UHGV virus genome: UHGV-0124552
From: a virus
Length of the DNA stretch: 16,824 nucleotides
Reading direction: 5' to 3' (one strand)
Of the stretch, positions 3,968 through 16,824 are shown piece by piece (positions within the stretch are counted from its first letter, which is position 1; the number at the start of each line of letters is the position of its first letter). The notes under the pieces were generated by a model. The model was not told the DNA's origin and did no database searches. It saw only the letters and a list, made by a program, of their open reading frames with translations. A program made the position numbers and the translations under genes.

Positions 3968-4201
3968 ATGCGTAATATTGAGATCCTCACGACTAAAACC
4001 GGATCGGATGATGCAGGGCTTAATATTTTACTGACAGTGGCTCGTCTGGAAGAACGCCGGGCAAGGGCTGAAGCAATGGCAGCTCGCCTTGATAGCCTGG
4101 CGTGTCATATCTCATCCCGTCAGCTAAACCACGTGGAAGCAGCAGAACTACTGCGTGTAACTGCTGAAGCAATCCAGAACGAAGCGCAGGAGATCCACTA
4201 A
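3968..4201 (+). CDS. Hypothetical early phage protein (77 aa)
   Basis: AGGAGA RBS (3954-3959) 8 nt before ATG 3968. Its stop overlaps the start of the next gene (TAATG). Confidence 0.5.
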   Translation: MRNIEILTTKTGSDDAGLNILLTVARLEERRARAEAMAARLDSLACHISSRQLNHVEAAELLRVTAEAIQNEAQEIH

Positions 4202-4428: not shown

Positions 4429-5282
4429 GCACCATCCTGAAATGGGCGGGAAATAAAACCGCCATTATGTCCGAACTGAAAAAACACCTTCCTGCTGGCC
4501 CGCGACTGGTTGAACCTTTCGCGGGTTCCTGTGCTGTGATGATGGAGACGGATTACCCCAGCTATCTGGTTGCGGATATTAATCCTGATTTAATCAACCT
4601 CTATAAAAAGGTTGCCGCTGATTGTGAATCGTTTATATCTCGCGCCAGAGTTTTATTTGAGATCGCAAACAGGGAGGTGGTTTATTACAACATAAGGCAG
4701 GAGTTTAATTACTCCACTGAAATTACTGATTTCATGAAAGCGGTATATTTCCTGTATCTCAATCGTCACGGTTACCGTGGTTTATGTCGCTATAACAAGA
4801 GCGGGCATTTCAACATTCCCTACGGTAATTATAAAAATCCGTATTTCCCTGAAAAAGAAATTCGCGCATTTGCAGAAAAGGCCCAGCGAGCAACGTTTAT
4901 CTGCGCCAGCTTTGATGAAACGCTGGCGATGTTGAAGGCGGGGGATGTGGTGTATTGCGATCCGCCGTATGACGGTACGTTTTCCGGCTATCACACTGAC
5001 GGCTTCACTGAAGATGACCAGTATCACCTGGCATCTGTTCTTGAACATCGGTCATCAGAAGGACATCCGGTCATTGTTTCTAACAGTGACACATCCCTGA
5101 TCCGTTCGCTGTATCGCAATTTTACTCACCACTACATCAAGGCAAAACGCAGCATCGGTGTGGCAGCTGGCGAGGGTAAATCAGCAACAGAAATCATTGC
5201 TGTTTCCGGGCCGCGCTGCTGGGTGGGATTTGATTATTCGCGTGGCGTGGATAGTTCTGCCGTGTACGGAGTACGTGCATGA
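4425..5282 (+). CDS. dam: DNA N6-adenine methyltransferase (Dam-like)
   Basis: N-terminal LKWAGNK and catalytic CDPPYDG (DPPY motif). GGAGG RBS 7 nt before ATG 4425. Stop overlaps the gpA start (ATGA). Confidence 0.85.
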
Positions 5283-7693
5283 GTCATGCCGATATGAACA
5301 ACTGCTGCGGCTTTAACGAGGCTGCCGCAGCATTCTCATGGAACAGCCCGAAAAAGGCCATTAACCCTTATCTGGACCCGGCGGAAGTTGCGCCGGTTTC
5401 TACGCTTTCAAACCTGATCACTCTGTACGCTGCCGATAACGAGCAGGAACAGTTGCGCCGCGAGGCACTGAGTGATCAGGTCTGGGAGCGTTATTTCTTT
5501 AATGAATCACGTGATCCTGTCCAGCGCGAAATGGAGCAGGATAAGCTCATTAGCCGGGCAAAGCTGGCGCATGAGCAGCAGCGTTTTAATTCAGACATGG
5601 TCATTCTGGCGGACGTCAACGCCCAGCCTTCCCATATCAGCAAGCCGCTGATGCAACGTATTGAATACTTCAGCAGCCTGGGCAGGCCAAAGGCTTATTC
5701 CCGCTATTTACGTGAGACGATTAAGCCATGTCTGGAACGACTGGAGCATGTACGCGACAGTCAGCTATCTGCATCTTTTCGCTTTATGGCAAGCCATGAA
5801 GGGCTGGATGGCCTGCTGATCCTGCCTGAAATGAGTCAGGATCAGGTGAAACGCCTGTCCACCCTGGTAGCTGCGCATATGAGTATGTGCCTTGATGCAG
5901 CTTGTGGTGATTTGTATGCCACCGATGACGTTAAGCCAGAAGAAATCCGCAAGACATGGGAAAAGGTGGCAGCGGAAACCCTGCGTCTGGATGTCATCCC
6001 ACCTGCGTTTGAGCAACTCCGTCGGAAAAGAAACCGCCGTAAACCCGTGCCCTATGAACTCATTCCGGGTTCGCTGGCGCGTATGTTGTGCGCCGACTGG
6101 TGGTATCGGAAATTATGGAAGATGCGTTGCGAATGGCGGGAAGAGCAGTTGCGCGCTGTTTGCCTGGTCAGCAAAAAAGCATCTCCTTATGTCAGCTATG
6201 AAGCCGTGATGCATAAACGTGAGCAGCGCCGTAAGTCGCTGGAGTTTTTCCGTTCTCATGAACTGGTGAACGAAGACGGCGACACGCTGGACATGGAGGA
6301 TGTGGTAAACGCCAGCAGCAGCAACCCTGCGCATCGCCGCAATGAGATGATGGCCTGTGTTAAAGGTCTGGAGCTTATCGCGGAAATGCGCGGTGACTGC
6401 GCCGTTTTCTACACTATCACCTGTCCGTCGCGTTTCCATTCCACGCTAAATAACGGCAGACCAAACCCGACCTGGACAAACGCGACGGTAAGACAAAGCA
6501 GCGATTATCTGGTCGGCATGTTTGCTGCATTTCGTAAGGCGATGCACAAAGCCGGGTTGCGCTGGTATGGCGTGCGGGTGGCTGAGCCGCATCATGATGG
6601 CACAGTTCACTGGCACCTGTTGTGTTTCATGCGCAAAAAAGACCGCCGTGCCATCACTGCATTACTGCGTAAGTTTGCCATCCGTGAAGACCGCGAGGAG
6701 CTGGGCAATAACACTGGGCCGCGCTTTAAGTCTGAGTTGATTAACCCGCGCAAAGGAACGCCGACAAGCTACATCGCGAAATATATCAGTAAGAACATTG
6801 ACGGTCGTGGTCTGGCTGGCGAGATCAGCAAGGAAACGGGTAAATCTCTGCGTGATAACGCTGAATACGTGAATGCCTGGGCGTCTCTGCATCGTGTTCA
6901 GCAATTCCGCTTCTTTGGTATTCCGGGGCGTCAGGCTTACCGTGAACTTCGCTTGCTGGCTGGTCAGGCGGCAAGGCAACAGGGTGACAAAAAAGCAGGT
7001 GCGCCGGTACTGGATAACCCGCGTCTTGATGCCATTCTGGCTGCTGCTGATGCTGGTTGTTTTGCCACCTACATCATGAAGCAGGGCGGCGTACTGGTTC
7101 CCCGTAAATATCACCTCATCAGAACCGCTTATGAAATCAACGAAGAGCCGACCGCCTATGGCGATCACGGCATTCGTATTTATGGCATCTGGTCACCCAT
7201 TGCAGAGGGCAAGATCTGCACTCATGCAGTGAAGTGGAAAATGGTTCGTAAAGCCGTTGACGTTCAGGAGGCGGCAGCCGACCAGGGCGCTTGCGCCCCT
7301 TGGACTCGTGGCAATAACTGTCCCCTTGCTGAAAATTTGTACCAACAAGGGAAAGACAAATCAGCTGATGGGGATACCAGAACGGATATCACCCGTATGG
7401 ATGACAAGGAGTTGCACGATTACCTGCACAGTATGAACAAAAAAGAACGCCGGGAACTGGCTGCAAGGTTACGCCTGGTGAAACCGAAACGGCGTAGAGA
7501 CTACAAACAGCGAATTACAGACCATCAACGACAGCAGCTCGTCTATGAACTGAAGTCCAGAGGATTTGACGGCAGCGAGAAAGAGGTCGATTTACTCCTT
7601 CGCGGCGGCAGCATTCCGTCAGGAGCAGGCCTGCGTATTTTCTATCGGAACCAGCGTTTGCAGGAAGATGATAAGTGGCGGAACCTGTATTAA
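5279..7693 (+). CDS. A: P2 gpA-family rolling-circle replication initiation endonuclease
   Basis: 804 aa, with HUH-type motif VHWHLLCF and active-site tyrosine motif YIAKYISKN. Last gene of the early operon. Confidence 0.85.
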
Positions 7694-8279: not shown

Positions 8280-8663
8280 GAAACGTTGCTGGCGTCTGAA
8301 CTTGCTTCTGGCGTCAGCAAGGTTGAACAACGAGCTATGCGAGGCGTTAGCCATCTGATCAAAAGACATCAAATATCATATTGTATATCGTGGTCAAACG
8401 CTGGAAACAATCATTCCCGATCAGAGGGGCTTCTTTCAATGTCCAAAAGAGTGAGATAGAGGATACAGGATGGGAAGAGCTTTTGATTAATTATCGTCCA
8501 AGTTTTTCAAAAGCTTCTTATCTGGCGGTCGATACATGATTTACTGTTGGATATGGTATTTAAAATTAATCTTTACACTGTGGTATATGCAGAATAGGAT
8601 ATTATCAATACAATCAAACTGTTTTCATACGGTTATTAATATTGCAATGTTATAGGTAATGTC

Positions 8664-9782
8664 ATGTATCTTTTCAAGTATTACCGTCCGGACTTCTTCT
8701 TCGAGAAAGCTATTCGTTATAATGAATTATATTTTTCCGCTCCTGCGCAATTGAATGATCCCAATGATCTCAATATAGATTATCGCTTCGATAATAAATT
8801 GAAATTATGGGATATTTTATTGCGTTCTCCTTGCGATAAATCCTATAAAAATTTGAGTCACATATTGGATTTGAGTAATTTGAAAATACATAAGGGATTG
8901 AATCGTATTTTTAGAGGAAAAAAAATAAAAAGTAGCATTGAGTCATTAGATAGCCTGTTCGACTCACACGTTGATGAGATACGTAAGATCATAGATGATG
9001 GTTTACTACCTATCAATGTGATTAATTCTGCTATTTATGGAAATATTCCTGAACCACGCCAATATTTGGTTTCACTTTGCGAGAACAGTATCAAAGAAAG
9101 GTTGTATAGGAAAATAGTTCCTGCAGTATTCAGTGTGTCATTTTCAGCTAATGCGTTAGATCGTATGATGTGGGCGCATTATGCTGCTGGCTTTAGTGGT
9201 TGTGTTGTGATTTATGAAACGCAGGATTTTAATATTGATGGTATACCCTATACTGGAATGAAGCTAAGAGAAAATTTATTTTCATCAGATAAATTTAATT
9301 TTCCAGTTAAGCCAATAAAATATAGTAATCAGGCTAAAGAGGTTTCACTTCTAGACCCAAGCGCAAATGTTGCAGAGTTATTTTTAACTAAAAATAGATT
9401 TTGGAGATATGAAGCTGAATATCGAATGTTTATTCCGGAGGCAAATGCAGGAATAGGGAGTGAGCGGCATGTTCAAAGACGCGTAAATCGAAATATTGGA
9501 CATATTTTTCATCATGATGCTAATGTTGTTAAAGGGATCATTTTTGGTCCTAGAATGTGTGAAATGAAAAAAGAAAGCATATGGAATTGTATCAAGTCAA
9601 ATATGGAGAATTCAAATTCAACAATATGTTATTTTTTTGACTCTGAGTTATCAGCATCAGGAAAGATTACTATTTCAAAAGGGCAACGAGCGGAAAAAAT
9701 GAAAAATTTCACTTTGTTCAGGAACAAGTTAAGTCAGACGGAAATGGCTAAAGTTTTGAAGGAAATTGGCATTACGAACTAA
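8664..9782 (+). CDS. DUF2971-like protein (372 aa) of unknown function; candidate single-gene defence/abortive-infection protein
   Basis: N-terminal YRPDFFFEKAIRYNELYFSAPAQLNDPND, central VFSVSFSANALDRMMWAHYAAGFSGCVVIY and C-terminal KNRFWRYEAEYRMF match the motif pattern I associate with DUF2971. Very AT-rich, preceded by about 380 bp of AT-rich non-coding DNA and followed by a terminator. Confidence 0.6.
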   Translation: MYLFKYYRPDFFFEKAIRYNELYFSAPAQLNDPNDLNIDYRFDNKLKLWDILLRSPCDKSYKNLSHILDLSNLKIHKGLNRIFRGKKIKSSIESLDSLFDSHVDEIRKIIDDGLLPINVINSAIYGNIPEPRQYLVSLCENSIKERLYRKIVPAVFSVSFSANALDRMMWAHYAAGFSGCVVIYETQDFNIDGIPYTGMKLRENLFSSDKFNFPVKPIKYSNQAKEVSLLDPSANVAELFLTKNRFWRYEAEYRMFIPEANAGIGSERHVQRRVNRNIGHIFHHDANVVKGIIFGPRMCEMKKESIWNCIKSNMENSNSTICYFFDSELSASGKITISKGQRAEKMKNFTLFRNKLSQTEMAKVLKEIGITN

Positions 9783-9848
9783 CCTAACAACAGTGCATGC
9801 CTATGCTGCCTGAATTTGCATGACCGTTTGAGGATCGTTTTTGCTAAG

Positions 9849-9875
9849 GCCCGCCAGAACTGGCGGGCTTTTGCG
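9849..9875 (+). terminator. Rho-independent terminator after the DUF2971-like gene
   Basis: GCCCGCCA (9849-9856), loop gaac, TGGCGGGC (9861-9868), then TTTTGCG. Confidence 0.65.
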
Positions 9876-9917
9876 TGGATCAGGCACCTGCATGAAAACC
9901 ACTACACAAAGCGGGCA

Positions 9918-9936
9918 GGCGTGGCGGGGATACGAG
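9918..9936 (+). other. cos: cos-like sequence (possible cohesive-end site or remnant of a P2/186-type phage)
   Basis: GGCGTGGCGGGGATACGAG matches the remembered 186 cos GGCGTGGCGGGGAAAGCAT in the first 13 nt (15 of 19 overall). It lies in a short GC-rich island between two AT-rich insertions, in the same orientation relative to Q as P2 cos. Confidence 0.4.
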
Positions 9937-10007
9937 CGCGCGCAGCGGGTGGAAACTCAGATTTGAATGTTGTATAAAAGATGGGATCATTCTGAGGAAA
10001 AGTGGAT

Positions 10008-10913
10008 ATGAAAAAGAAAACTATTCCGGAGTTGCAGAAGCAAAATCTGGCAAATTTAATTAAAAGTCGGCTTTTTCAACAGAAAAATAAAAATAAAGTT
10101 ACTGTTTTCCTTTGCGGGGGCGATTTGAATGATCCGTTTTTTTGTAGAAATAAAGTTAAAAGAGTGTTGGAAACACATCCCAAAATAGAAATATTCTATC
10201 CTGAGGAGTTGTTTGATGAGCTTTTGTATGGACAAGGTCAGCATAGTCTTTTAAGTTTGGAGAATATTTTAGCTGATTCAGTCGATGTTATTATTATTAT
10301 TCCTGAAAGCCCAGGGTCTTTCGCTGAATTGGGCGCATTTTCAAATAATGAAAAACTGTGCAAAAAAATGATATGTCTTCAGGATGACAAATTCAAACTT
10401 AAAAAAAGCTTTCTTAATTATGGGCCTATAAAACTGCTTCGGCGTGCTAATAGCGGTGCAGTATTGCGAGGAGATTTGTCGACTCTTGAAAGCTTGAGTA
10501 CAGGTAAAGCTTTTTATAATAGAATTATAAAAAGTATTAATGACATCAAAAAAAATAACCCAGTTAATCACTCAATAGATAATATTCTTCACGCTCGGCG
10601 TTTTATACTGCCATGTATATATTTGATGGATGGTATAGATAATATACTTCTATATGAGCTATTACATTTGGTGACTAAGAAAGATGCTATTCTTTGTGAA
10701 ATTATCGTTAAGTCTGTTATTTCAAGCTTGATTAAAGAGTCAATAATTAGGCGTTCAGTTCAAGGATACCATATTACAGAAATTGGTATGCAATACGTTC
10801 TTGAGCATTTTGATCGAAAGGCTTTGGACAATCTACGACTGGATATGATGAACTTCGAAAATCGTGGTAAAACAATACTCCACTATGATAGGATGCGTTT
10901 TGCGCACCCTTAG
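10008..10913 (+). CDS. Retron effector: nucleoside 2-deoxyribosyltransferase-like (NDT-like) protein, as in the Ec86 (Retron-Eco1) family
   Basis: VFLCGG ... VIIIIPESPGSFAELGAFS resembles the NDT-like fold motif with a catalytic Glu. Its stop codon lies inside the retron a1 repeat, immediately upstream of msr-msd and the RT. GAGGA RBS 9 nt before ATG 10008; the track start at 10002 is GTG. Confidence 0.65.
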   Translation: MKKKTIPELQKQNLANLIKSRLFQQKNKNKVTVFLCGGDLNDPFFCRNKVKRVLETHPKIEIFYPEELFDELLYGQGQHSLLSLENILADSVDVIIIIPESPGSFAELGAFSNNEKLCKKMICLQDDKFKLKKSFLNYGPIKLLRRANSGAVLRGDLSTLESLSTGKAFYNRIIKSINDIKKNNPVNHSIDNILHARRFILPCIYLMDGIDNILLYELLHLVTKKDAILCEIIVKSVISSLIKESIIRRSVQGYHITEIGMQYVLEHFDRKALDNLRLDMMNFENRGKTILHYDRMRFAHP

Positions 10914-11061
10914 CGAGTGGCTTCTCCGGAAGTTCACTGGACAGTGTTTCGCTGTCCTACATACAATCTGAAGTTTTACCAGTTCCCTCATTGAAAGGAG
11001 AACATCTCCCGATGTTCTCCTTTCACTTCGGAATCTGATTTTTATGACGTAAGGGTGCGCT
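10901..11061 (+). ncRNA. msr-msd: Retron msr-msd non-coding RNA (template/primer for msDNA), Ec86-like
   Basis: Inverted repeats a1 TGCGCACCCTTA (10901-10912) and a2 TAAGGGTGCGC (11050-11060). The 5' 17 nt TGCGCACCCTTAGCGAG and the 3' TGACGTAAGGGTGCGC are identical to the Ec86 ncRNA as I remember it. msr hairpin GGACAG-tgtttcg-CTGTCC (10939-10957). Long msd hairpin GAAAGGAGAACATC-tccc-GATGTTCTCCTTTC (10993-11024). Confidence 0.75.
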
Positions 11062-11062
11062 C

Positions 11063-12037
11063 ATGACTTCCGCAACACCATCTCAGGTTTTTCGCTTACG
11101 CAATCTTGGATTGCCTGTTATGTCCTCTTTAGAGGATATGTCTAGAGAAATGCGTTTATCAGTAGACATACTCCGGTTGTACATTTATCGTGCTGACAAA
11201 TACTATAAGGTTTATTCGTTGCCAAAAAGAGATGGCAAGAGATCCCGCATCATTTCACAGCCATCACGTGAGCTGAAGGCATTGCAAGCTTGGGTGTTAA
11301 GAAACATCCTTGATAAGTTACATTCATCCCCATTTTCCAAAGGCTTTGAAAAAGGGCAATCAATATTAAATAATGCCAGCCCACATGTAGGAGCTAACTA
11401 TGTATTAAATATTGATTTAGAAGATTGTTTTAATACTATTCTGATAGAGAAAATCTATACTGTTTTTCATTCTCTGGGGTATAACTCTACTATTTCTAAT
11501 GCTTTAGCAAGATTGTGTTCATTTAATGGTTCGCTACCTCAAGGTGCACCATCTTCTCCAAAGATTGCGAATCTTGTTTTAACTAAATTAGATTATAGAA
11601 TACATGGATATGCAGGTAGTAAGGGGATCGTATTTACTCGATATGCCGATGATTTGACTTTATCTGCTCAATCTTTAAAAAAAATACTTAAAGCTAAGTC
11701 ATTTGTATGCTCTATAATACCAAGTGAATCTTTGAAGGTTAATTATAATAAAGTTGCGATTCATGGCCCCAAAGCAAGGAAGGAGGTTACTGGGCTCGTT
11801 TTATCTATTGATAATGTTGGAGTTGGCAGAATACGTTATCGCGAAATTAGAAGTAAGATCCATTATCTGGCGGTAAAAAGAAATTCTGATTTCGAACATG
11901 TTAAAGGACTTATTGCGTTTGTTAAAAGTGTAGACAAGAAAAACTATAGAAAATTGATGACTTTCTCAAATAAAATGTCTGAAGCATATGGGGTTGATCT
12001 AAGTGTTCTTTTTCCTAAAAACAAAAAGGCCATTTAA
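11063..12037 (+). CDS. ret: Retron reverse transcriptase (Ec86 / Retron-Eco1-like)
   Basis: N-terminus FRLRNLGLPVM and QPSRELKALQAWVLRNILDKL closely resemble Ec86 RT (from memory). Also QGAPSSPKIANL, the catalytic YADD (RYADDLTLSA) and the retron-specific VTG motif (KEVTGLVL). Start codon abuts the a2 repeat. Confidence 0.85.
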   Translation: MTSATPSQVFRLRNLGLPVMSSLEDMSREMRLSVDILRLYIYRADKYYKVYSLPKRDGKRSRIISQPSRELKALQAWVLRNILDKLHSSPFSKGFEKGQSILNNASPHVGANYVLNIDLEDCFNTILIEKIYTVFHSLGYNSTISNALARLCSFNGSLPQGAPSSPKIANLVLTKLDYRIHGYAGSKGIVFTRYADDLTLSAQSLKKILKAKSFVCSIIPSESLKVNYNKVAIHGPKARKEVTGLVLSIDNVGVGRIRYREIRSKIHYLAVKRNSDFEHVKGLIAFVKSVDKKNYRKLMTFSNKMSEAYGVDLSVLFPKNKKAI

Positions 12038-12050
12038 TGGCCTTTTTGTT
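12023..12050. terminator. Bidirectional rho-independent terminator shared by the convergent ret and Q genes
   Basis: AAAAAGGCCAT-tta-ATGGCCTTTTT palindrome with A/T runs on both sides. The ret stop codon lies in the loop and the Q stop immediately beyond. Confidence 0.55.
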
Positions 12051-12052
12051 TA

Positions 12053-13081
12053 TTAGGTAATTGAATAACTCACGAAATTAATAACTTCTTCATTTATCCA
12101 TTCGTTCAGCTCTTCTAGTCTTTTTTGTAAAGGGATGAGTTCATTCCTCACAAAAACATTAGCAGCTTTCTCTACATCCCCAAACCCCCCAATATTATTC
12201 GGCATGATCCCCATCATCTGCGGCGGCACGCGGTGCGCAGCCATCATGTCATCCCGGCTCACGTTCTTGATATTCAGAAACTCATCCTTCGCCGCGACTT
12301 CTGACAATGGGATGATCTGAAGTCCGTCCTTTTTGCCGTTAGGCGAGTACATAAACAGATTGCGGAAGTTACCTGGTCCTTTGGCGCTTTTCATCGTATT
12401 GCGGAGGTTGTTCACATCCTCCTGGTTCTGCGCAGCATCGGTCATGTACATGATGAAGCCTGCATGACTGCCGTTAATGTAATACTTGCGGCGGAACAGC
12501 GTGGCGGACTCGTTGAGCAGAGCTGACGGAATGGCAGAAAGATAACCGGGCAGGCCGTAGATCTCCTGGTTAATGTCCGGTTCCATCAGATGAAAAATGC
12601 TGCCTTTCGTGAACTGATACGGCTGGGTTGTCATACCGTATTGCACAAACCAGTAGGTATCCAGGTCTAACCCGCGTCGGGTGTATTTTGCCAGTGCAGG
12701 CTCAAGGGCGATAACTTCACCGAAGCGGTTCGTGCGTTTCTCCAGGTAGGCGTTACCAAAAACCAGATAGTCCTGCACAAAACGCGAAAAAGCCTGCTGG
12801 CTGAGTAGCGGGTGAGGGATGTAGGTGCTGGTCAGAATGTTGCATTTCACCGCAATTGGTGAACTGTGATGCACGGCAGCGCGGAAGGTGCGCGCCAGTC
12901 CGTCAAAGCTGACAGGAGGCTCATACCAGCGATCTGTCTGTACGCATTCCACATAGTCCAGCAGTTCGCGGCGGTCAAGTACAGGAACGGGATCACCGAA
13001 GCTGAATGCTTCGGCTGAAGTCTGGCTTTTATGCTTGAGCTGATTCGTCGCCGCAGCGCGGTTTTTCTTAATCTTTCCCAT
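12053..13081 (-). CDS. Q: Portal protein (P2 gpQ-like)
   Basis: About 342 aa, size and sequence style of P2 gpQ. Convergent with ret and divergent from O, as in P2. ATG at 13081 overlaps the P stop (ATGA). The last ~25 codons (12053-12130) are AT-rich, unlike the rest of the gene. Confidence 0.8.
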   Translation of the reverse strand: MGKIKKNRAAATNQLKHKSQTSAEAFSFGDPVPVLDRRELLDYVECVQTDRWYEPPVSFDGLARTFRAAVHHSSPIAVKCNILTSTYIPHPLLSQQAFSRFVQDYLVFGNAYLEKRTNRFGEVIALEPALAKYTRRGLDLDTYWFVQYGMTTQPYQFTKGSIFHLMEPDINQEIYGLPGYLSAIPSALLNESATLFRRKYYINGSHAGFIMYMTDAAQNQEDVNNLRNTMKSAKGPGNFRNLFMYSPNGKKDGLQIIPLSEVAAKDEFLNIKNVSRDDMMAAHRVPPQMMGIMPNNIGGFGDVEKAANVFVRNELIPLQKRLEELNEWINEEVINFVSYSIT

Positions 13082-14847
13082 CAAAAAATCTCCACAATAT
13101 TGCTGGTATTGGCGGATTCGCCCTGCAGCGGTTCGTTAAACAATGCGTGCATCGTTGCCCAGGCCAGATCGGCGTGGCTGGCTTCTTCGCTGCGGCTGGC
13201 TTCATAGGTCGGGCGGTTGCCGCTGGCGGTGGTGGCGCGACGGATTGCCATGAATGACTGCGCAATGTCGCTGTGCCCGGCGTCAAACTCCAGACGGCGG
13301 TGGCTGATAATGTCGTAGGCCTTGAGTACCAGAGCGTTTTTAACGTTGGGGTTGTAGACAAACTCCCGGACGGCTGGAAAAAACGCTTTCACGTTCTCAT
13401 AAACTCCGTGACCGACACCCGTCGAGTCGATGCCGATATATGTCACGTTGTACTGTTCGGTCAGTTTTTTGATGGCGTCCGCCTGGGCGCGGAAGTCCAT
13501 CCCGCGCCACTGGTGGCGCTCAAGAATACGGAACTTACCGCCCGGCACGGCTGGCGGTGCCACCACCACGCATCCGGCGCTGTCGCCGTTCTGCGTACCT
13601 TTTGCCGGGTCATAACCGATCCACACTTCGCGCCACCCAAACGGGCGAAGGGCCAGTGCATGAAAGTCGGTCCAGACTTCCCAGCTGTCCACCATGCACG
13701 CCTGCAGCTCGCTGAGCGGAAACACGGACGCGAGATCGTCCACAAACTCGCACATCAGCAGGTTCTGGTATTCGTCCGGGCTGTACTCCATGCGTAGTTG
13801 GTCGAGGTCGAACAGGTTACAGCCGCCGCGCACCGCATCTTCCACGGTGACTATCTGGCGGTATTGCCCGTCTGCGCACAGCAGGCCGGGGGCCAGATTG
13901 CTGTGGGACAGGTCGATGTCCACCTTGTCGGCTTTGTTGCGTCCACGGTTGAACAGCGCACCGGACCAGAACGGATAAGCACTGTGGGTCAGGCTGGATG
14001 GCGTGGAAAAATAGGTTTGTCGCCATTTTTTGTGAATAGCCATACCGGAAGCCACTTTGCGCAGCTCCTGGAATTTCGGTATCCAGAAATATTCATCCAG
14101 ATACAGGTTGCCGTGGTAACTCTGGGCAGTGCGGGCATTGGTGCCGAGGAAATACAGTGTGGCCCCGTTGGGAAGCACCATCGGATCGCCTTTCAGCTCC
14201 ACTTCCACTTCTTTGGCGAAGTCGATGATGTACTGCTTAAAGACGTGCGCCTGTGCCTTACTGGCAGAAAGGAAAATCTGGTTACGTCCGGTTAGCAGGG
14301 CGTCAATCAGGGCTTCACGGGCAAAATAGAAGGTCGCGCCGATCTGGCGTGACTTCAGCAGGTTGCGGATGCGGTTGGTTTTTCCGGCTTCCCACCAGTG
14401 ACGCTGGTAGTTGAACATGGAGGAATGGAAGATTTCTTCCAGCTTCTCAATCTGTTCATCGGTGAAAACATTCTTTTCAGGCTGACGGCGCGGGCCTTTG
14501 TTGCGGTTGGCGACGTTAGGGTTTAAATCGGCTTCGTTGCCGCCATTGTTAAACTTGCCGATCCGCGCGTGGCGCTCCGACTGGCGCGCCAGCAGATCAA
14601 TTTCTTTGAAATCTTTCCCTTCTTTGTGCTCCTTCATAATGAGCTGGCAGTAACGTGCGGCGGTGGTGAGCTGCATCTGATCCAGCGGCCCATAGTCACC
14701 CCACTTGTCGCGTTTTTTCCAGCTGTGAACGGTTGCAACTTTCTCGCCCAGCATTTCAGCAATGCGGGCTACGCGGTATCCCTGAAAGTACAGCAGCATG
14801 GCCTGCCGACGGGGATCGAGATCTGCGGGTGTCAGTGTGGTGTTCAT
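13081..14847 (-). CDS. P: Terminase large (ATPase) subunit (P2 gpP-like)
   Basis: 588 aa (P2 gpP is about 590). N-terminus LDPRRQAMLLYFQGYRVARIAEMLG resembles gpP. Upstream of Q on the same strand. Confidence 0.85.
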   Translation of the reverse strand: MNTTLTPADLDPRRQAMLLYFQGYRVARIAEMLGEKVATVHSWKKRDKWGDYGPLDQMQLTTAARYCQLIMKEHKEGKDFKEIDLLARQSERHARIGKFNNGGNEADLNPNVANRNKGPRRQPEKNVFTDEQIEKLEEIFHSSMFNYQRHWWEAGKTNRIRNLLKSRQIGATFYFAREALIDALLTGRNQIFLSASKAQAHVFKQYIIDFAKEVEVELKGDPMVLPNGATLYFLGTNARTAQSYHGNLYLDEYFWIPKFQELRKVASGMAIHKKWRQTYFSTPSSLTHSAYPFWSGALFNRGRNKADKVDIDLSHSNLAPGLLCADGQYRQIVTVEDAVRGGCNLFDLDQLRMEYSPDEYQNLLMCEFVDDLASVFPLSELQACMVDSWEVWTDFHALALRPFGWREVWIGYDPAKGTQNGDSAGCVVVAPPAVPGGKFRILERHQWRGMDFRAQADAIKKLTEQYNVTYIGIDSTGVGHGVYENVKAFFPAVREFVYNPNVKNALVLKAYDIISHRRLEFDAGHSDIAQSFMAIRRATTASGNRPTYEASRSEEASHADLAWATMHALFNEPLQGESANTSNIVEIF

Positions 14848-14893
14848 GGCACAAACCTACAGCCTTGAATGAAGGCTTTCCCCGCCTGCGGTT

Positions 14894-14911
14894 TGTGTGG
14901 TTGTCGGTACA
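14894..14911 (+). promoter_or_regulatory. TGT-N12-ACA dyad typical of Ogr-dependent P2-type late promoters, upstream of O
   Basis: TGT (14894-14896), 12 nt, ACA (14909-14911), in the P/O divergent intergenic region about 80-95 bp upstream of the O start codon. Confidence 0.45.
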
Positions 14912-14989
14912 AATACCGCGCATTGTTTCACTGCCCCCATCACCGCAACCATAAGGCTCCAGTAAGTTTTTTCTAACGGAGCACGGCTC

Positions 14990-15883
14990 ATGACAGTGAA
15001 AGCAAAGCGTTTTCGCATCGGGGTGGAAGGTGCCACCACCGACGGACGCGAAATCCAGCGTGAATGGCTGGAACAGATGGCAGCCAGCTACAACCCGGCG
15101 GTGTATACCGCGCTGATTAACCTTGAGCACATCAAGTCTTATCTGCCGGACAGCACCTTTAACCGCTACGGCAAGGTGACGGCGCTGTTTGCTGAAGAAA
15201 TCACGGAAGGTCCGCTGGCAGGCAAGATGGCGCTGTATGCCGACGTTGAGCCAACAGAGTCCCTGGTGGAGCTGGTGAAAAAAGGCCAGAAATTATTCAC
15301 CTCTATGGAAGTCAGCCCAAAGTTTGCTGATACGGGCAAAGCCTACCTGGTCGGGCTGGCTGCCACTGATGACCCTGCCAGTCTGGGCACTGAAATGCTG
15401 ACATTCAGCGCCAGTGCAGCCCATAACCCGCTGGCAAACCGCAAGCAGAATCCCGCCAATCTCTTTACCGCCGCAGAGGAAACGGTGATCGAACTGGAAG
15501 AAATCCAGGAGGACAAGCCGTCCCTGTTTGCCCGCGTCACGGCGCTGTTCACCAAAAAAGAGCAGTCCGACGATGCCCGGTTCTCTGATGTGCATAAGGC
15601 CGTGGAGCTGGTCGCCACTGAGCAGCAGAACCTGAGCGCACGGACCGAAAAATCCCTGTCTGAGCAGGAAGAACGTCTGTCTGAGCTGGAGACTGCCCTG
15701 CAGGCACAGCAGACCGCCTTTAACGAACTGGTGAATAAGCTGAGTCATGAAGACAGCCGCCAGGACTACGCGAAGCTGACCATCAATGGTGAGGTGCTCT
15801 ATGAAGTGGACCTTATCAACATGGTGGAAATTGTGGACGGTGTGGACCTGATGGAAGCGCACCGCAACGCCCTCGGCCTCTGA
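14990..15883 (+). CDS. O: Capsid scaffolding protein (P2 gpO-like)
   Basis: FRIGVEGATTDGREI ... INLEH ... TSMEVSPKFADTGKAYLVGLAATDDPASLGTE ... ASDDARFSDVH aligns by eye along the length of remembered P2 gpO. GGAG RBS 8 nt upstream. Confidence 0.85.
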   Translation: MTVKAKRFRIGVEGATTDGREIQREWLEQMAASYNPAVYTALINLEHIKSYLPDSTFNRYGKVTALFAEEITEGPLAGKMALYADVEPTESLVELVKKGQKLFTSMEVSPKFADTGKAYLVGLAATDDPASLGTEMLTFSASAAHNPLANRKQNPANLFTAAEETVIELEEIQEDKPSLFARVTALFTKKEQSDDARFSDVHKAVELVATEQQNLSARTEKSLSEQEERLSELETALQAQQTAFNELVNKLSHEDSRQDYAKLTINGEVLYEVDLINMVEIVDGVDLMEAHRNALGL

Positions 15884-15894
15884 TATATCTGAAC

Positions 15895-15912
15895 GGCGCG
15901 GGATACCGCGCC
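15895..15912 (+). other. GC-rich hairpin in the short O to E' spacer (possible terminator or deletion-junction landmark)
   Basis: GGCGCGG-gata-CCGCGCC. No T-run follows, so not a canonical intrinsic terminator. Confidence 0.3.
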
Positions 15913-15937
15913 AGAACCCAATTGACAGGACAGCAAA

Positions 15938-16080
15938 ATGAGCGATAAGCAGACTGAAAAGACCATTCAACTGGATACCCCCATCAAGCGCGGTAAAACA
16001 GAAATCACCGAAATTGTGCTGCGTAAACCGCAGTCCGGTGCGCTGCGCGGTACACGCCTGCAGGCCATTATGGATACCTG
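15938..16080 (+). pseudogene. Truncated tail assembly chaperone gpE-like N-terminal fragment (E')
   Basis: First ~47 aa (TIQLDTPIKRGKTEITEIVLRKPQSGALRGTRLQAIMD) fit the gpE-type tail assembly chaperone pattern. Beyond about 16080 the frame reads into unrelated residues before stopping at 16246. Confidence 0.5.
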
Positions 16081-16383
16081 GTGGGTACGGATGAAAACGT
16101 GCTGGTACTTAATCGCACTTATGCCAACCGGAGCAACGCTGAACGGGCAGCGAAAATGCAGTGGGAACGCCTGCAACGCGGCGTTGCGTCATTCTCGCTA
16201 CAACTGGCGGAAGGGCGGGCAGATCTCTACACAGAAATGCCTGTGAAGGTCAGTGGCTTTAAACAGCCGATAGATGATGCGGAATGGACCATTACGACTC
16301 TGACGCATACCGTCAGCCCGGATAACGGTTTTACGACCAGTCTGGAGCTTGAAGTGAGGATTGATGATTTCGAAATGGAATGA
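16081..16383 (+). pseudogene. C-terminal fragment of tail protein gpD (D')
   Basis: ERAAKMQWERLQRG ... RADLYTEMPVKVSGFK ... GFTTSLELEV resembles the C-terminus of P2 gpD (from memory). It lacks the ~290 N-terminal residues and is out of frame with the upstream E' fragment. Confidence 0.55.
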
Positions 16384-16473
16384 TTCTTCGCAATGGAGAA
16401 CTTTTAAGTTTGCAAAATGGAATAATGCGGTATCATTATTGTGAATTTAGCAAAAATGGGGAGAGCTCGAAAA

Positions 16474-16692
16474 ATGATGATTTGCCCACTGTGTGGAAGT
16501 GCCGCCCATACTCGCAGCAGTTTTCAGGTATCTTCATTGACCAAAGAGCGTTACAACCAGTGCCAGAACATTAACTGCAGCCATACTTTTGTTACCCATG
16601 AAACTTTTGTTCGTTCGATTGCAACGCCAAAAGAGTCAAATCCGGTTCAGCCGCATCCAATGAAATCAGGACAGGTGGCGCTCTCTCTTTGA
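16474..16692 (+). CDS. ogr: Ogr-family zinc-finger late gene transcriptional activator
   Basis: 72 aa; CPLCGSAAHTRSS ... KERYNQCQNINCSHTF ... RPHP closely matches remembered P2 Ogr (CPLCQHAAHARTS ... KERYHQCQNVNCSATF ... RPHP). ATG at 16474; the track start at 16441 is GTG. Confidence 0.9.
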   Translation: MMICPLCGSAAHTRSSFQVSSLTKERYNQCQNINCSHTFVTHETFVRSIATPKESNPVQPHPMKSGQVALSL

Positions 16693-16715
16693 CGCTGCCG
16701 CCATTTTGTCGCCAT
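16693..16715. repeat. attR: attR core: right copy of the 23-bp imperfect direct repeat CGCTGCCGCCATTTTGTCGCCAT
   Basis: 21 of 23 identical to 148-170. Begins immediately after the ogr stop codon. Confidence 0.6.
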
Positions 16716-16778
16716 CGTTAAAGAATAGTGCTTCTAACATCATGATTTTAAACAGCTTAAATTTCAGACAACAAAAAA

Positions 16779-16821
16779 CCCATCAACCTTGAACCGAAAT
16801 GGCGGGGTTGATGGGCTCCAC
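16779..16821 (-). terminator. Rho-independent terminator-like hairpin in the right flank
   Basis: cccatcaacc (16779-16788) pairs with ggttgatggg (16806-16815) across a 17-nt loop. On the - strand the stem is followed by TTTTTTGTTG. The loop is long, so confidence is moderate. Confidence 0.35.
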
Positions 16822-16824
16822 AAA

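Follow-up and report, generated by a model that had tools for sequence, protein, structure and literature searches.

P2-like prophages of the type discussed here are represented in intact form by Escherichia phage 500465-1 (Wadgaonvirus, NC_049342.1) and by a 34.1-kb prophage of Escherichia coli strain H1, located at 3995.5-4029.6 kb of NZ_CP010160.1. A 36.5-kb slice of the H1 chromosome (3994500-4031000) was used as main reference, and positions called H1 ref below refer to this slice; the phage served as second reference, against which positions 14701-16824 of the window were compared by local BLAST. The window, i.e., the whole 16,824-nt stretch of DNA analysed, shared its att core, insertion site and gene order with both references, and with the H1 prophage the order int-cI-...-dam-A-cargo-Q-P-O together with a retron St85-family reverse transcriptase and effector. 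The element it contains measured 16.7 kb, about half of the intact H1 prophage, and is very probably a complete attL-to-attR P2-like E. coli prophage grounded by two independent illegitimate deletions.

On its sequence, the element is P2-like (Peduoviridae, Wadgaonvirus-type). Its DNA was colinear with phage 500465-1 and the H1 prophage, it displayed the P2 gene order with homologous early and late genes, and the Pfam domains GPO, Phage_tube, TAC_7, GPD and Ogr_Delta supported the same type. A duplicated att core bounded the element, marking it as an integrated copy: the 14-mer AACAAAAAACCCAT was found on the plus strand at 42-55 (attL, the left boundary) and at 16770-16783 (attR), and the intact H1 prophage carries it at either end as well. 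The attR copy lay inside the 3' end of the host small RNA gene rybB (16770-16824, minus strand; Rfam RybB RF00110, 62.6 bits), so that the prophage sits in the terminator of rybB, flanked by the E. coli genes rcdA and ybjL. At attL (42-55), the phage provides a substitute rybB 3' end. An extra 350 bp (174-523), absent in H1, separated attL from the 3' end of int and harbored an 89-aa minus-strand ORF (176-445).

The early region of the prophage was retained, while the morphogenetic and lysis genes were missing. Reading of the ORFs upstream of the late region gave an integrase, a CI-like repressor, a CII-like gene and dam, followed by a P2 A-type replication gene (5279-7693), a reverse transcriptase (11063-12037, Pfam RVT_1), the portal gene (12053-13084, minus strand) and the large terminase subunit (13081-14847, minus strand). 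The ORF listing then displayed a 297-aa ORF (14990-15883), a 54-bp spacer, a 102-aa ORF starting at 15938 and, in a different frame, a 100-aa ORF starting at 16081. The gene ogr, encoding the zinc-finger activator of late genes, was intact at 16474-16692 on the plus strand (Pfam Ogr_Delta, E=5e-22) and 100% identical to that of the H1 prophage. Kept genes thus comprised int, the repressor, the cox/cII region, dam, gene A, Q, P, portal, large terminase, ogr and the retron. Absent were the capsid gene, the small terminase gene M, the head completion gene L, holin, endolysin, spanins and all tail, baseplate and fibre genes, including sheath, tube, T and U, with breaks inside O, FII, E and D. From this gene absence the element is predicted to be unable to make capsids or tails or to lyse, in agreement with the first-pass annotation, according to which capsid, lysis and tail functions were all lost and particle production with them.

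Several features of the retained arm lay outside the late region. The retron region (10002-12037), located between gene A and the portal gene, consisted of the RVT_1 reverse transcriptase preceded by a 303-aa protein (10002-10913) that had no Pfam match; the near-identical H1 genes are annotated as retron St85-family reverse transcriptase and effector. No msr/msd RNA of the retron was found by Rfam at gathering thresholds. Between the stops of the reverse transcriptase and portal genes, about 50 nt (12011-12060) matched their own reverse complement in the H1 prophage, and this palindromic region is possibly a bidirectional terminator. Cargo DNA at 8454-9792 had no counterpart in the H1 prophage and encoded a 372-aa protein (8664-9782) with a weak DUF2971 match; the best whole-sequence relatives, strains KFu015 and 97.3, carry an annotated DUF2971 protein. 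When the P2 cohesive-end 19-mer was sought, the closest stretch, a weak cos candidate upstream of the retron, agreed at only 14 of 19 positions (9918-9936, GGCGTGGCGGGGATACGAG).

The right part of the window was composed of three pieces that are distant from each other in intact prophages. BLAST against phage 500465-1 split 14701-16824 into three colinear pieces, the first ending at 15769, the second covering 15766-16076 and the third starting at 16075. In the H1 reference, the first piece (9793-15769) corresponded to 9950-15926 with 98.7% identity, the second (311 bp) to 29500-29810 and the third (16075-16824) to 34449-35198, the last two with 100% identity. The left arm as a whole was 95.6 to 98.7% identical to H1, while the FII-E island and the arm from the D fragment through ogr to attR were 100% identical; the latter arm was only 83% identical to phage 500465-1 from D to ogr. 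Since the island and the D-ogr-attR arm were 100% identical to intact prophage DNA, the deletions are probably recent. The H1 prophage has the intervening DNA (N to most of FII, and the 3' part of E to D codon 264), and the element described here further differs from H1 by its other cargo at 8454-9792 and by the extra sequence between attL and int. The loss relative to H1 amounted to 13,573 + 4,638 bp, i.e., 18.2 kb, a figure to which the earlier estimate of roughly 16 kb has to be raised when the closest intact prophage is taken as measure. Alignment to the intact prophage thus confirmed that the P2-type late region between O and ogr had disappeared through two separate deletion junctions, and it allowed to map the breakpoints and their microhomology (CTAC and TA).

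The first junction fused the capsid scaffold/protease gene to the end of the tail-tube gene. It mapped to 15766-15769 on the plus strand, a 4-bp CTAC common to O (H1 ref 15923-15926) and FII (29500-29503), and the three-way alignment displayed this overlap between unrelated flanks. The deletion of 13,573 bp removed N, M, L, X, the lysis genes, R, S, V, W, J, I, H, the tail-fibre assembly genes, the invertase, FI and most of FII. Gene O was truncated (14990-15769, plus strand; codons 1-260 of 277; Pfam Phage_GPO 6-259, E=7e-109), and the homology to O ended at 15769 in the best phage records and in every E. coli genome match. The following bases (15770-15883, plus strand) encoded the 3' end of FII, codons 135-171 plus stop, with 100% identity to H1 ref 29504-29617 and a match to Phage_tube 128-165 of 165; their translation agreed with the FII C-terminus. 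The 297-aa ORF was therefore an in-frame O::FII chimera (Pfam Phage_GPO at residues 6-259, Phage_tube at 259-296), and not gene O itself ending at 15883 as first annotated. The junction had been placed in the 55-bp spacer, across a GC hairpin, 115-170 bp downstream of its true site.

Between the two deletions an island of 311 bp survived, running from the 37 terminal codons of FII across the native FII-E spacer into the initial 46 codons of E. The spacer (15884-15937, plus strand) was base-for-base identical to H1 ref 29618-29671. It included the hairpin GGCGCGG-GATA-CCGCGCC at 15895-15912 (-17.4 kcal/mol, z = -2.8), which has no T-run and was not called terminator-like. As the spacer is identical to the intact FII-E intergenic region, the hairpin is native and unrelated to the deletion.

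The second junction joined the 5' part of E to the 3' part of D and fell at 16075-16076 on the plus strand, within the interval 16075-16085 anticipated by the first-pass annotation. The two bases TA were common to E (H1 ref 29809-29810) and D (34449-34450), again with unrelated flanks in the three-way alignment, and codon 46 of E plus one base led into codon 265 of D. The deletion of 4,638 bp took the rest of E/E', T, U and D codons 1-264. The E fragment, the beginning of a tail assembly chaperone gene (15938-16076, plus strand; codons 1-46 and one base), was 100% identical to H1 ref 29672-29810 and matched Pfam Phage_TAC_7 over profile positions 1-33 of 79, as foreseen from its gpE-like N-terminus; past the junction, the ORF starting at 15938 read D DNA in the wrong frame as far as 16246. 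The D fragment (16075-16383, plus strand; codons 265-366 plus stop) was 100% identical to H1 ref 34449-34757 and matched Phage_GPD 237-302 of 305. It stood in the +1 frame relative to E and had no native start, which bears out the earlier description of an out-of-frame gpD C-terminal fragment.

Homology-independent joining would account for both deletions. The first linked O codon 260 in frame to FII codon 135 through CTAC, removing 13,573 bp, and the second linked E codon 46 out of frame to D codon 265 through TA, removing 4,638 bp. End joining of broken DNA or template switching during replication could each produce such joins, for which two to four shared bases would suffice. Loss of the lysis and particle genes may then have been tolerated or even favoured, as the risk of induction would be removed while the early region and the retron cargo were kept. 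Homologous recombination is argued against by the TA junctions, whose flanks were no more alike than those of random TA pairs.

Analogous deletions were found at the same att site in complete genomes. Fourteen other remnants were compared, from complete genomes and from metagenomic or viral contigs. A search of complete E. coli genomes with 15500-16500 listed about ten distinct types, from which ten strains were mapped (PSJ-16, MB7671, isolate 44, ChlosBP-23-1, GPT21-003, WP2-S18-ESBL-08, ECCWS199, ETEC4068, LR-64-2 and 504239). Scans for exact patterns at the hot sites added metagenome contig OLRU01000482.1 and five IMG/VR contigs, with four distinct junctions; these patterns were aimed at known sites, and the counts of site reuse are biased upward accordingly. 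Remnants examined in context (e.g., PSJ-16 and ECCWS199) had the same att site and retained the early region and ogr. The late genes were lost in all remnants, mostly by a single join between O and D, each with a different pairing of sites.

The mapped junctions are given here in H1 ref coordinates with their overlaps, those of the window being O15926::FII29500 (CTAC) and E29810::D34449 (TA). O15948 was joined through TA to D34449 in PSJ-16, to D34326 in isolate 44, to D34645 in WP2-S18, to E29809 in IMG/VR 2531839532 and to cin27440 at the first junction of OLRU01000482, of which the second junction was 27796::U33275 (TA). A break at D34001 was shared by MB7671 (O15927::D34001, TACC), by the second junction of ECCWS199 (E'30047::D34001, T), by IMG/VR 2703718857 (A7131::D34001, TA) and by IMG/VR 2703718841 (T32670::D34001, T), while the first junction of ECCWS199 was P14135::FII29501 (TA). 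The remaining joins were dam5631::D34449 (TA) in IMG/VR 3300029878, L18242::D34645 (T) in IMG/VR 2534682222 and 2617270939, N16356 with about 12 nt of filler and no overlap to D34645 in 504239, E'30048::D34627 (G) in ETEC4068, FII29577::D33964 (T) in LR-64-2, O15895::D34363 (AA) in ChlosBP-23-1 and O15867::D34204 (GC) in GPT21-003. Isolate 44 displayed a second deletion, Q13199::P14471 (~TTC). In IMGVR_UViG_2531839532_000013, a second junction followed T 31415 (GGAGA before the break, TACGACC after it; reverse complement, ~10815) and led into DNA absent from the H1 prophage, which may be a different right end.

TA overlaps were far commoner than expected by chance, and the same sites recurred across independent remnants. 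Break sites were reused with different partners at H1 ref 15924, 15947, 29501, 29809, 30047, 34001, 34449 and 34645, all of them TA except 30047. Four of the sites were common to the window and other remnants: D 34449 (PSJ-16 and IMG/VR 3300029878), FII 29500/1 (ECCWS199), O 15926/7 (MB7671) and E 29809/10 (IMG/VR 2531839532). The O alleles flanking 15948 differed between strains, as did the partners, so these joins were separate events. The combination of both window junctions was found in none of the other remnants.

Of all dinucleotide positions, 3.5-4.0% were TA, according to the stretch of the reference chosen for the count, and the last 330 nt of O contained only four TAs, two of which were reused break sites. 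Among junctions not ascertained by a TA-containing pattern, 8 of 14 had TA in the overlap against 0.5% expected for two random break points (binomial P about 2e-15); restricted to overlaps of 2 nt or longer, the proportion was 8 of 10 against 3.3% expected (P about 6e-11). The Q::P junction of isolate 44, mapped later, makes the count 8 of 15 and leaves the conclusion unchanged. In junctions that were ascertained by pattern, the partner site was TA in 4 of 6 (P = 0.003). The inflation of site reuse does not affect the TA excess, which was computed in the non-targeted junction set. The seven junctions of 15 that were not TA comprised five short overlaps (AA, GC, G, T and ~TTC), one T of TA and one filler of about 12 nt. 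Flanks of TA junctions matched at 6.25 of 24 positions against 6.09 for random TA pairs (P = 0.42). A weak symmetric CGG-N-TA-N-CCG bias was seen around the sites, with per-position P values of 0.001-0.01 that are uncorrected for multiple tests.

A strong TA bias and the reuse of sites elsewhere would not be expected if joining by microhomology were purely random, and the deletions could instead be the work of an activity directed to TA dinucleotides, where it would cut or exchange DNA. Grounding would then be directed by an enzyme rather than random, an explanation which we regard as possible and clearly not the leading one. The activity could be that of a nuclease whose cuts leave TA-cohesive ends, a cleavage of the topoisomerase type, or a recombinase not yet recognised. 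Under such a cut-and-join leaving a single TA, prophages would be grounded repeatedly at the rybB site and both window junctions would be instances of it, a generalization that is rather doubtful; O 15947, FII 29501, E 29809, D 34001, D 34449 and D 34645 would be its preferred sites, likewise with a low probability. The TA excess in non-ascertained overlaps and in pattern-ascertained partners fits this idea, as does the repeated use of O 15947/8 (five times), D 34001 (four times), D 34449 and D 34645 (three times each) and FII 29501 (twice) with differing partners. E 29809/10 served as left and as right end, as a self-complementary TA would allow, and the flanks shared nothing beyond TA apart from the weak symmetric bias. 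Yet nearly half of the non-ascertained junctions had no TA overlap, the reused site E' 30047/8 is not TA, and part of the site sample came from patterns aimed at known sites. Moreover, none of the candidates considered (invertase, att core, Chi, Rpn) fits, and the resemblance to the gyrase consensus arms was not significant over all sites.

Each of these causes was considered in turn, along with structural features of the sites. Resection by RecBCD limited by Chi was rejected, as no exact Chi was present on either strand of the 36.5-kb H1 reference and 7/8 variants near two of the sites were misoriented. A Cin-type invertase acting at quasi-sites has a crossover core of AA/TT, unlike the junctions, and neither partner lay near the invertible segment. 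Int acting at secondary att sites was discarded because its core sequence shows no relation to the sites of the junctions, and annealing of longer imperfect homology because flank similarity did not exceed that of random TA pairs. O 15947 (GGCGGTA) and D 34001 (ATACCCGCCG) resembled the arms of the published 133-bp gyrase cleavage consensus (PMC6379681 supplement), and over all sites the match to these arms was not significant (P = 0.09-0.34). The Rpn (YhgA-like) recombination-promoting nucleases are reported to lack sequence specificity (PMC5350276) and were rejected. Small hairpins and GCGAAGC mini-hairpins seen by eye near some sites had no consistent position relative to the break. Nothing usable was found in the literature on hot spots in P2 remnants, on illegitimate recombination linked to TA or on the nick site of the P2 A protein.

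Homology-independent joining followed by decay also has to be weighed against selection for a satellite. In that case the element would be a helper-dependent "mini-P2", equipped to integrate, to replicate and to have itself packaged by a co-resident P2-like helper, and not debris, which is quite unlikely. Its retention of int, cI, the cox/cII region, dam, gene A, Q, P and ogr and its size, 16.7 kb against 34.1 kb for the intact prophage, would suit such a role, and degraded phage elements have been suggested to parasitise full-length phages (preprint 10.1101/2022.06.09.495481). However, its gene content was that of a P2-like helper minus the late genes, and there was no sign of spread: the exact junctions occurred nowhere else in the searched collections. 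Among 5,426 complete E. coli genomes, neither junction, nor the two together, had a match, the exact junction patterns were absent from the GTDB species representatives (one-genome-per-species bacterial contigs), and the pattern of the first junction was absent from IMG/VR. Both joins, the out-of-frame one between E and D and the accidental one between O and FII, consist of DNA that still matches the intact prophage at 100%, and they are hence recent and unpolished; the many different layouts of the other remnants fit decay and not a conserved design. In addition, the small terminase gene M was lost, and the best cos match reached 14 of 19 positions at 9918.

That the junctions were produced by assembly, in a collapsed or chimeric contig, is highly improbable. 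A second copy of either junction was indeed not found in the searched collections, but the overlaps at both joins are clean (2-4 bp), all pieces keep one order and one orientation between proper att cores, and closed long-read genomes contain very similar deletions at the same FII and D break sites. Finally, the layout with O intact to 15883 and the first junction in the spacer (15884-15937) across the hairpin, to which the unbroken 297-aa ORF and the strong hairpin after it had pointed, is practically untenable, as no relative, phage or E. coli, shows O homology beyond 15769, 15770-15883 is the C-terminus of FII, and the spacer with its hairpin recurs unchanged between FII and E of the intact prophage.

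The element is thus an ordinary, recently grounded P2-like prophage, and its history is one of routine prophage decay. It has value as a correctly mapped example, with its break points, overlaps, accidental in-frame O::FII fusion and retained defence cargo. The comparative pattern of TA-anchored, site-recurrent deletions across independent remnants could matter more. If a defined activity causes this pattern, it would provide a testable route in E. coli from an inducible P2-like prophage to a harmless carrier of defence genes, and it would explain why many remnants end in a D fragment and ogr.

Compared with known processes, both junctions resembled microhomology-dependent illegitimate recombination in E. 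coli (alternative end joining and replication slippage), with overlaps that likewise fall within 1-4 bp and with neither flanking homology nor a site for a site-specific recombinase. To our knowledge, a preference for TA or the reuse of sites to the single nucleotide has not been described for either pathway, and TA dominates among the junctions compared here.

Compared with known remnants, the first-pass annotation had likened the D fragment and ogr to yegZ/ogrK of E. coli K-12 and had considered that a recurrent decay pathway may link them, with K-12 as the more decayed. The K-12 locus was taken from MG1655 (NC_000913.3, 2163000-2172000; positions below are within this slice). The cryptic remnant PR-X found there shares with the window the succession of a C-terminal D fragment, an intact ogr-type gene and attR. 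Its P2 lineage is another one, as is its place in the chromosome, beside cyaR; at the DNA level, the yegZ D fragment could be aligned with the D fragment of the window over no more than 96 bp (about 69% identity). In K-12 the break in D lies about 100 bp nearer to the 3' end (about H1 ref 34550 against 34449 here), and the remnant keeps nothing of int through O, nor of FII or E. Two direct copies of the 18-mer TACACGGGCTTATTTTTT, which we take to be the P2 att core, bound it at 4184 and 4813; the yegZ D fragment begins directly at the 4813 copy, and the other lies beyond ogrK, at the opposite edge. As the D fragment adjoins an att-core copy and not E, this arrangement points to an att-associated event that would have removed the DNA from attL to D, and not to an E::D join. 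The likeness to K-12 is therefore superficial, with D broken elsewhere and against another left partner; PR-X is no later stage of the same decay, and a recurrent decay pathway stands for a different reason: many independent remnants of the same prophage type as the window, rather than PR-X, reuse its break sites.
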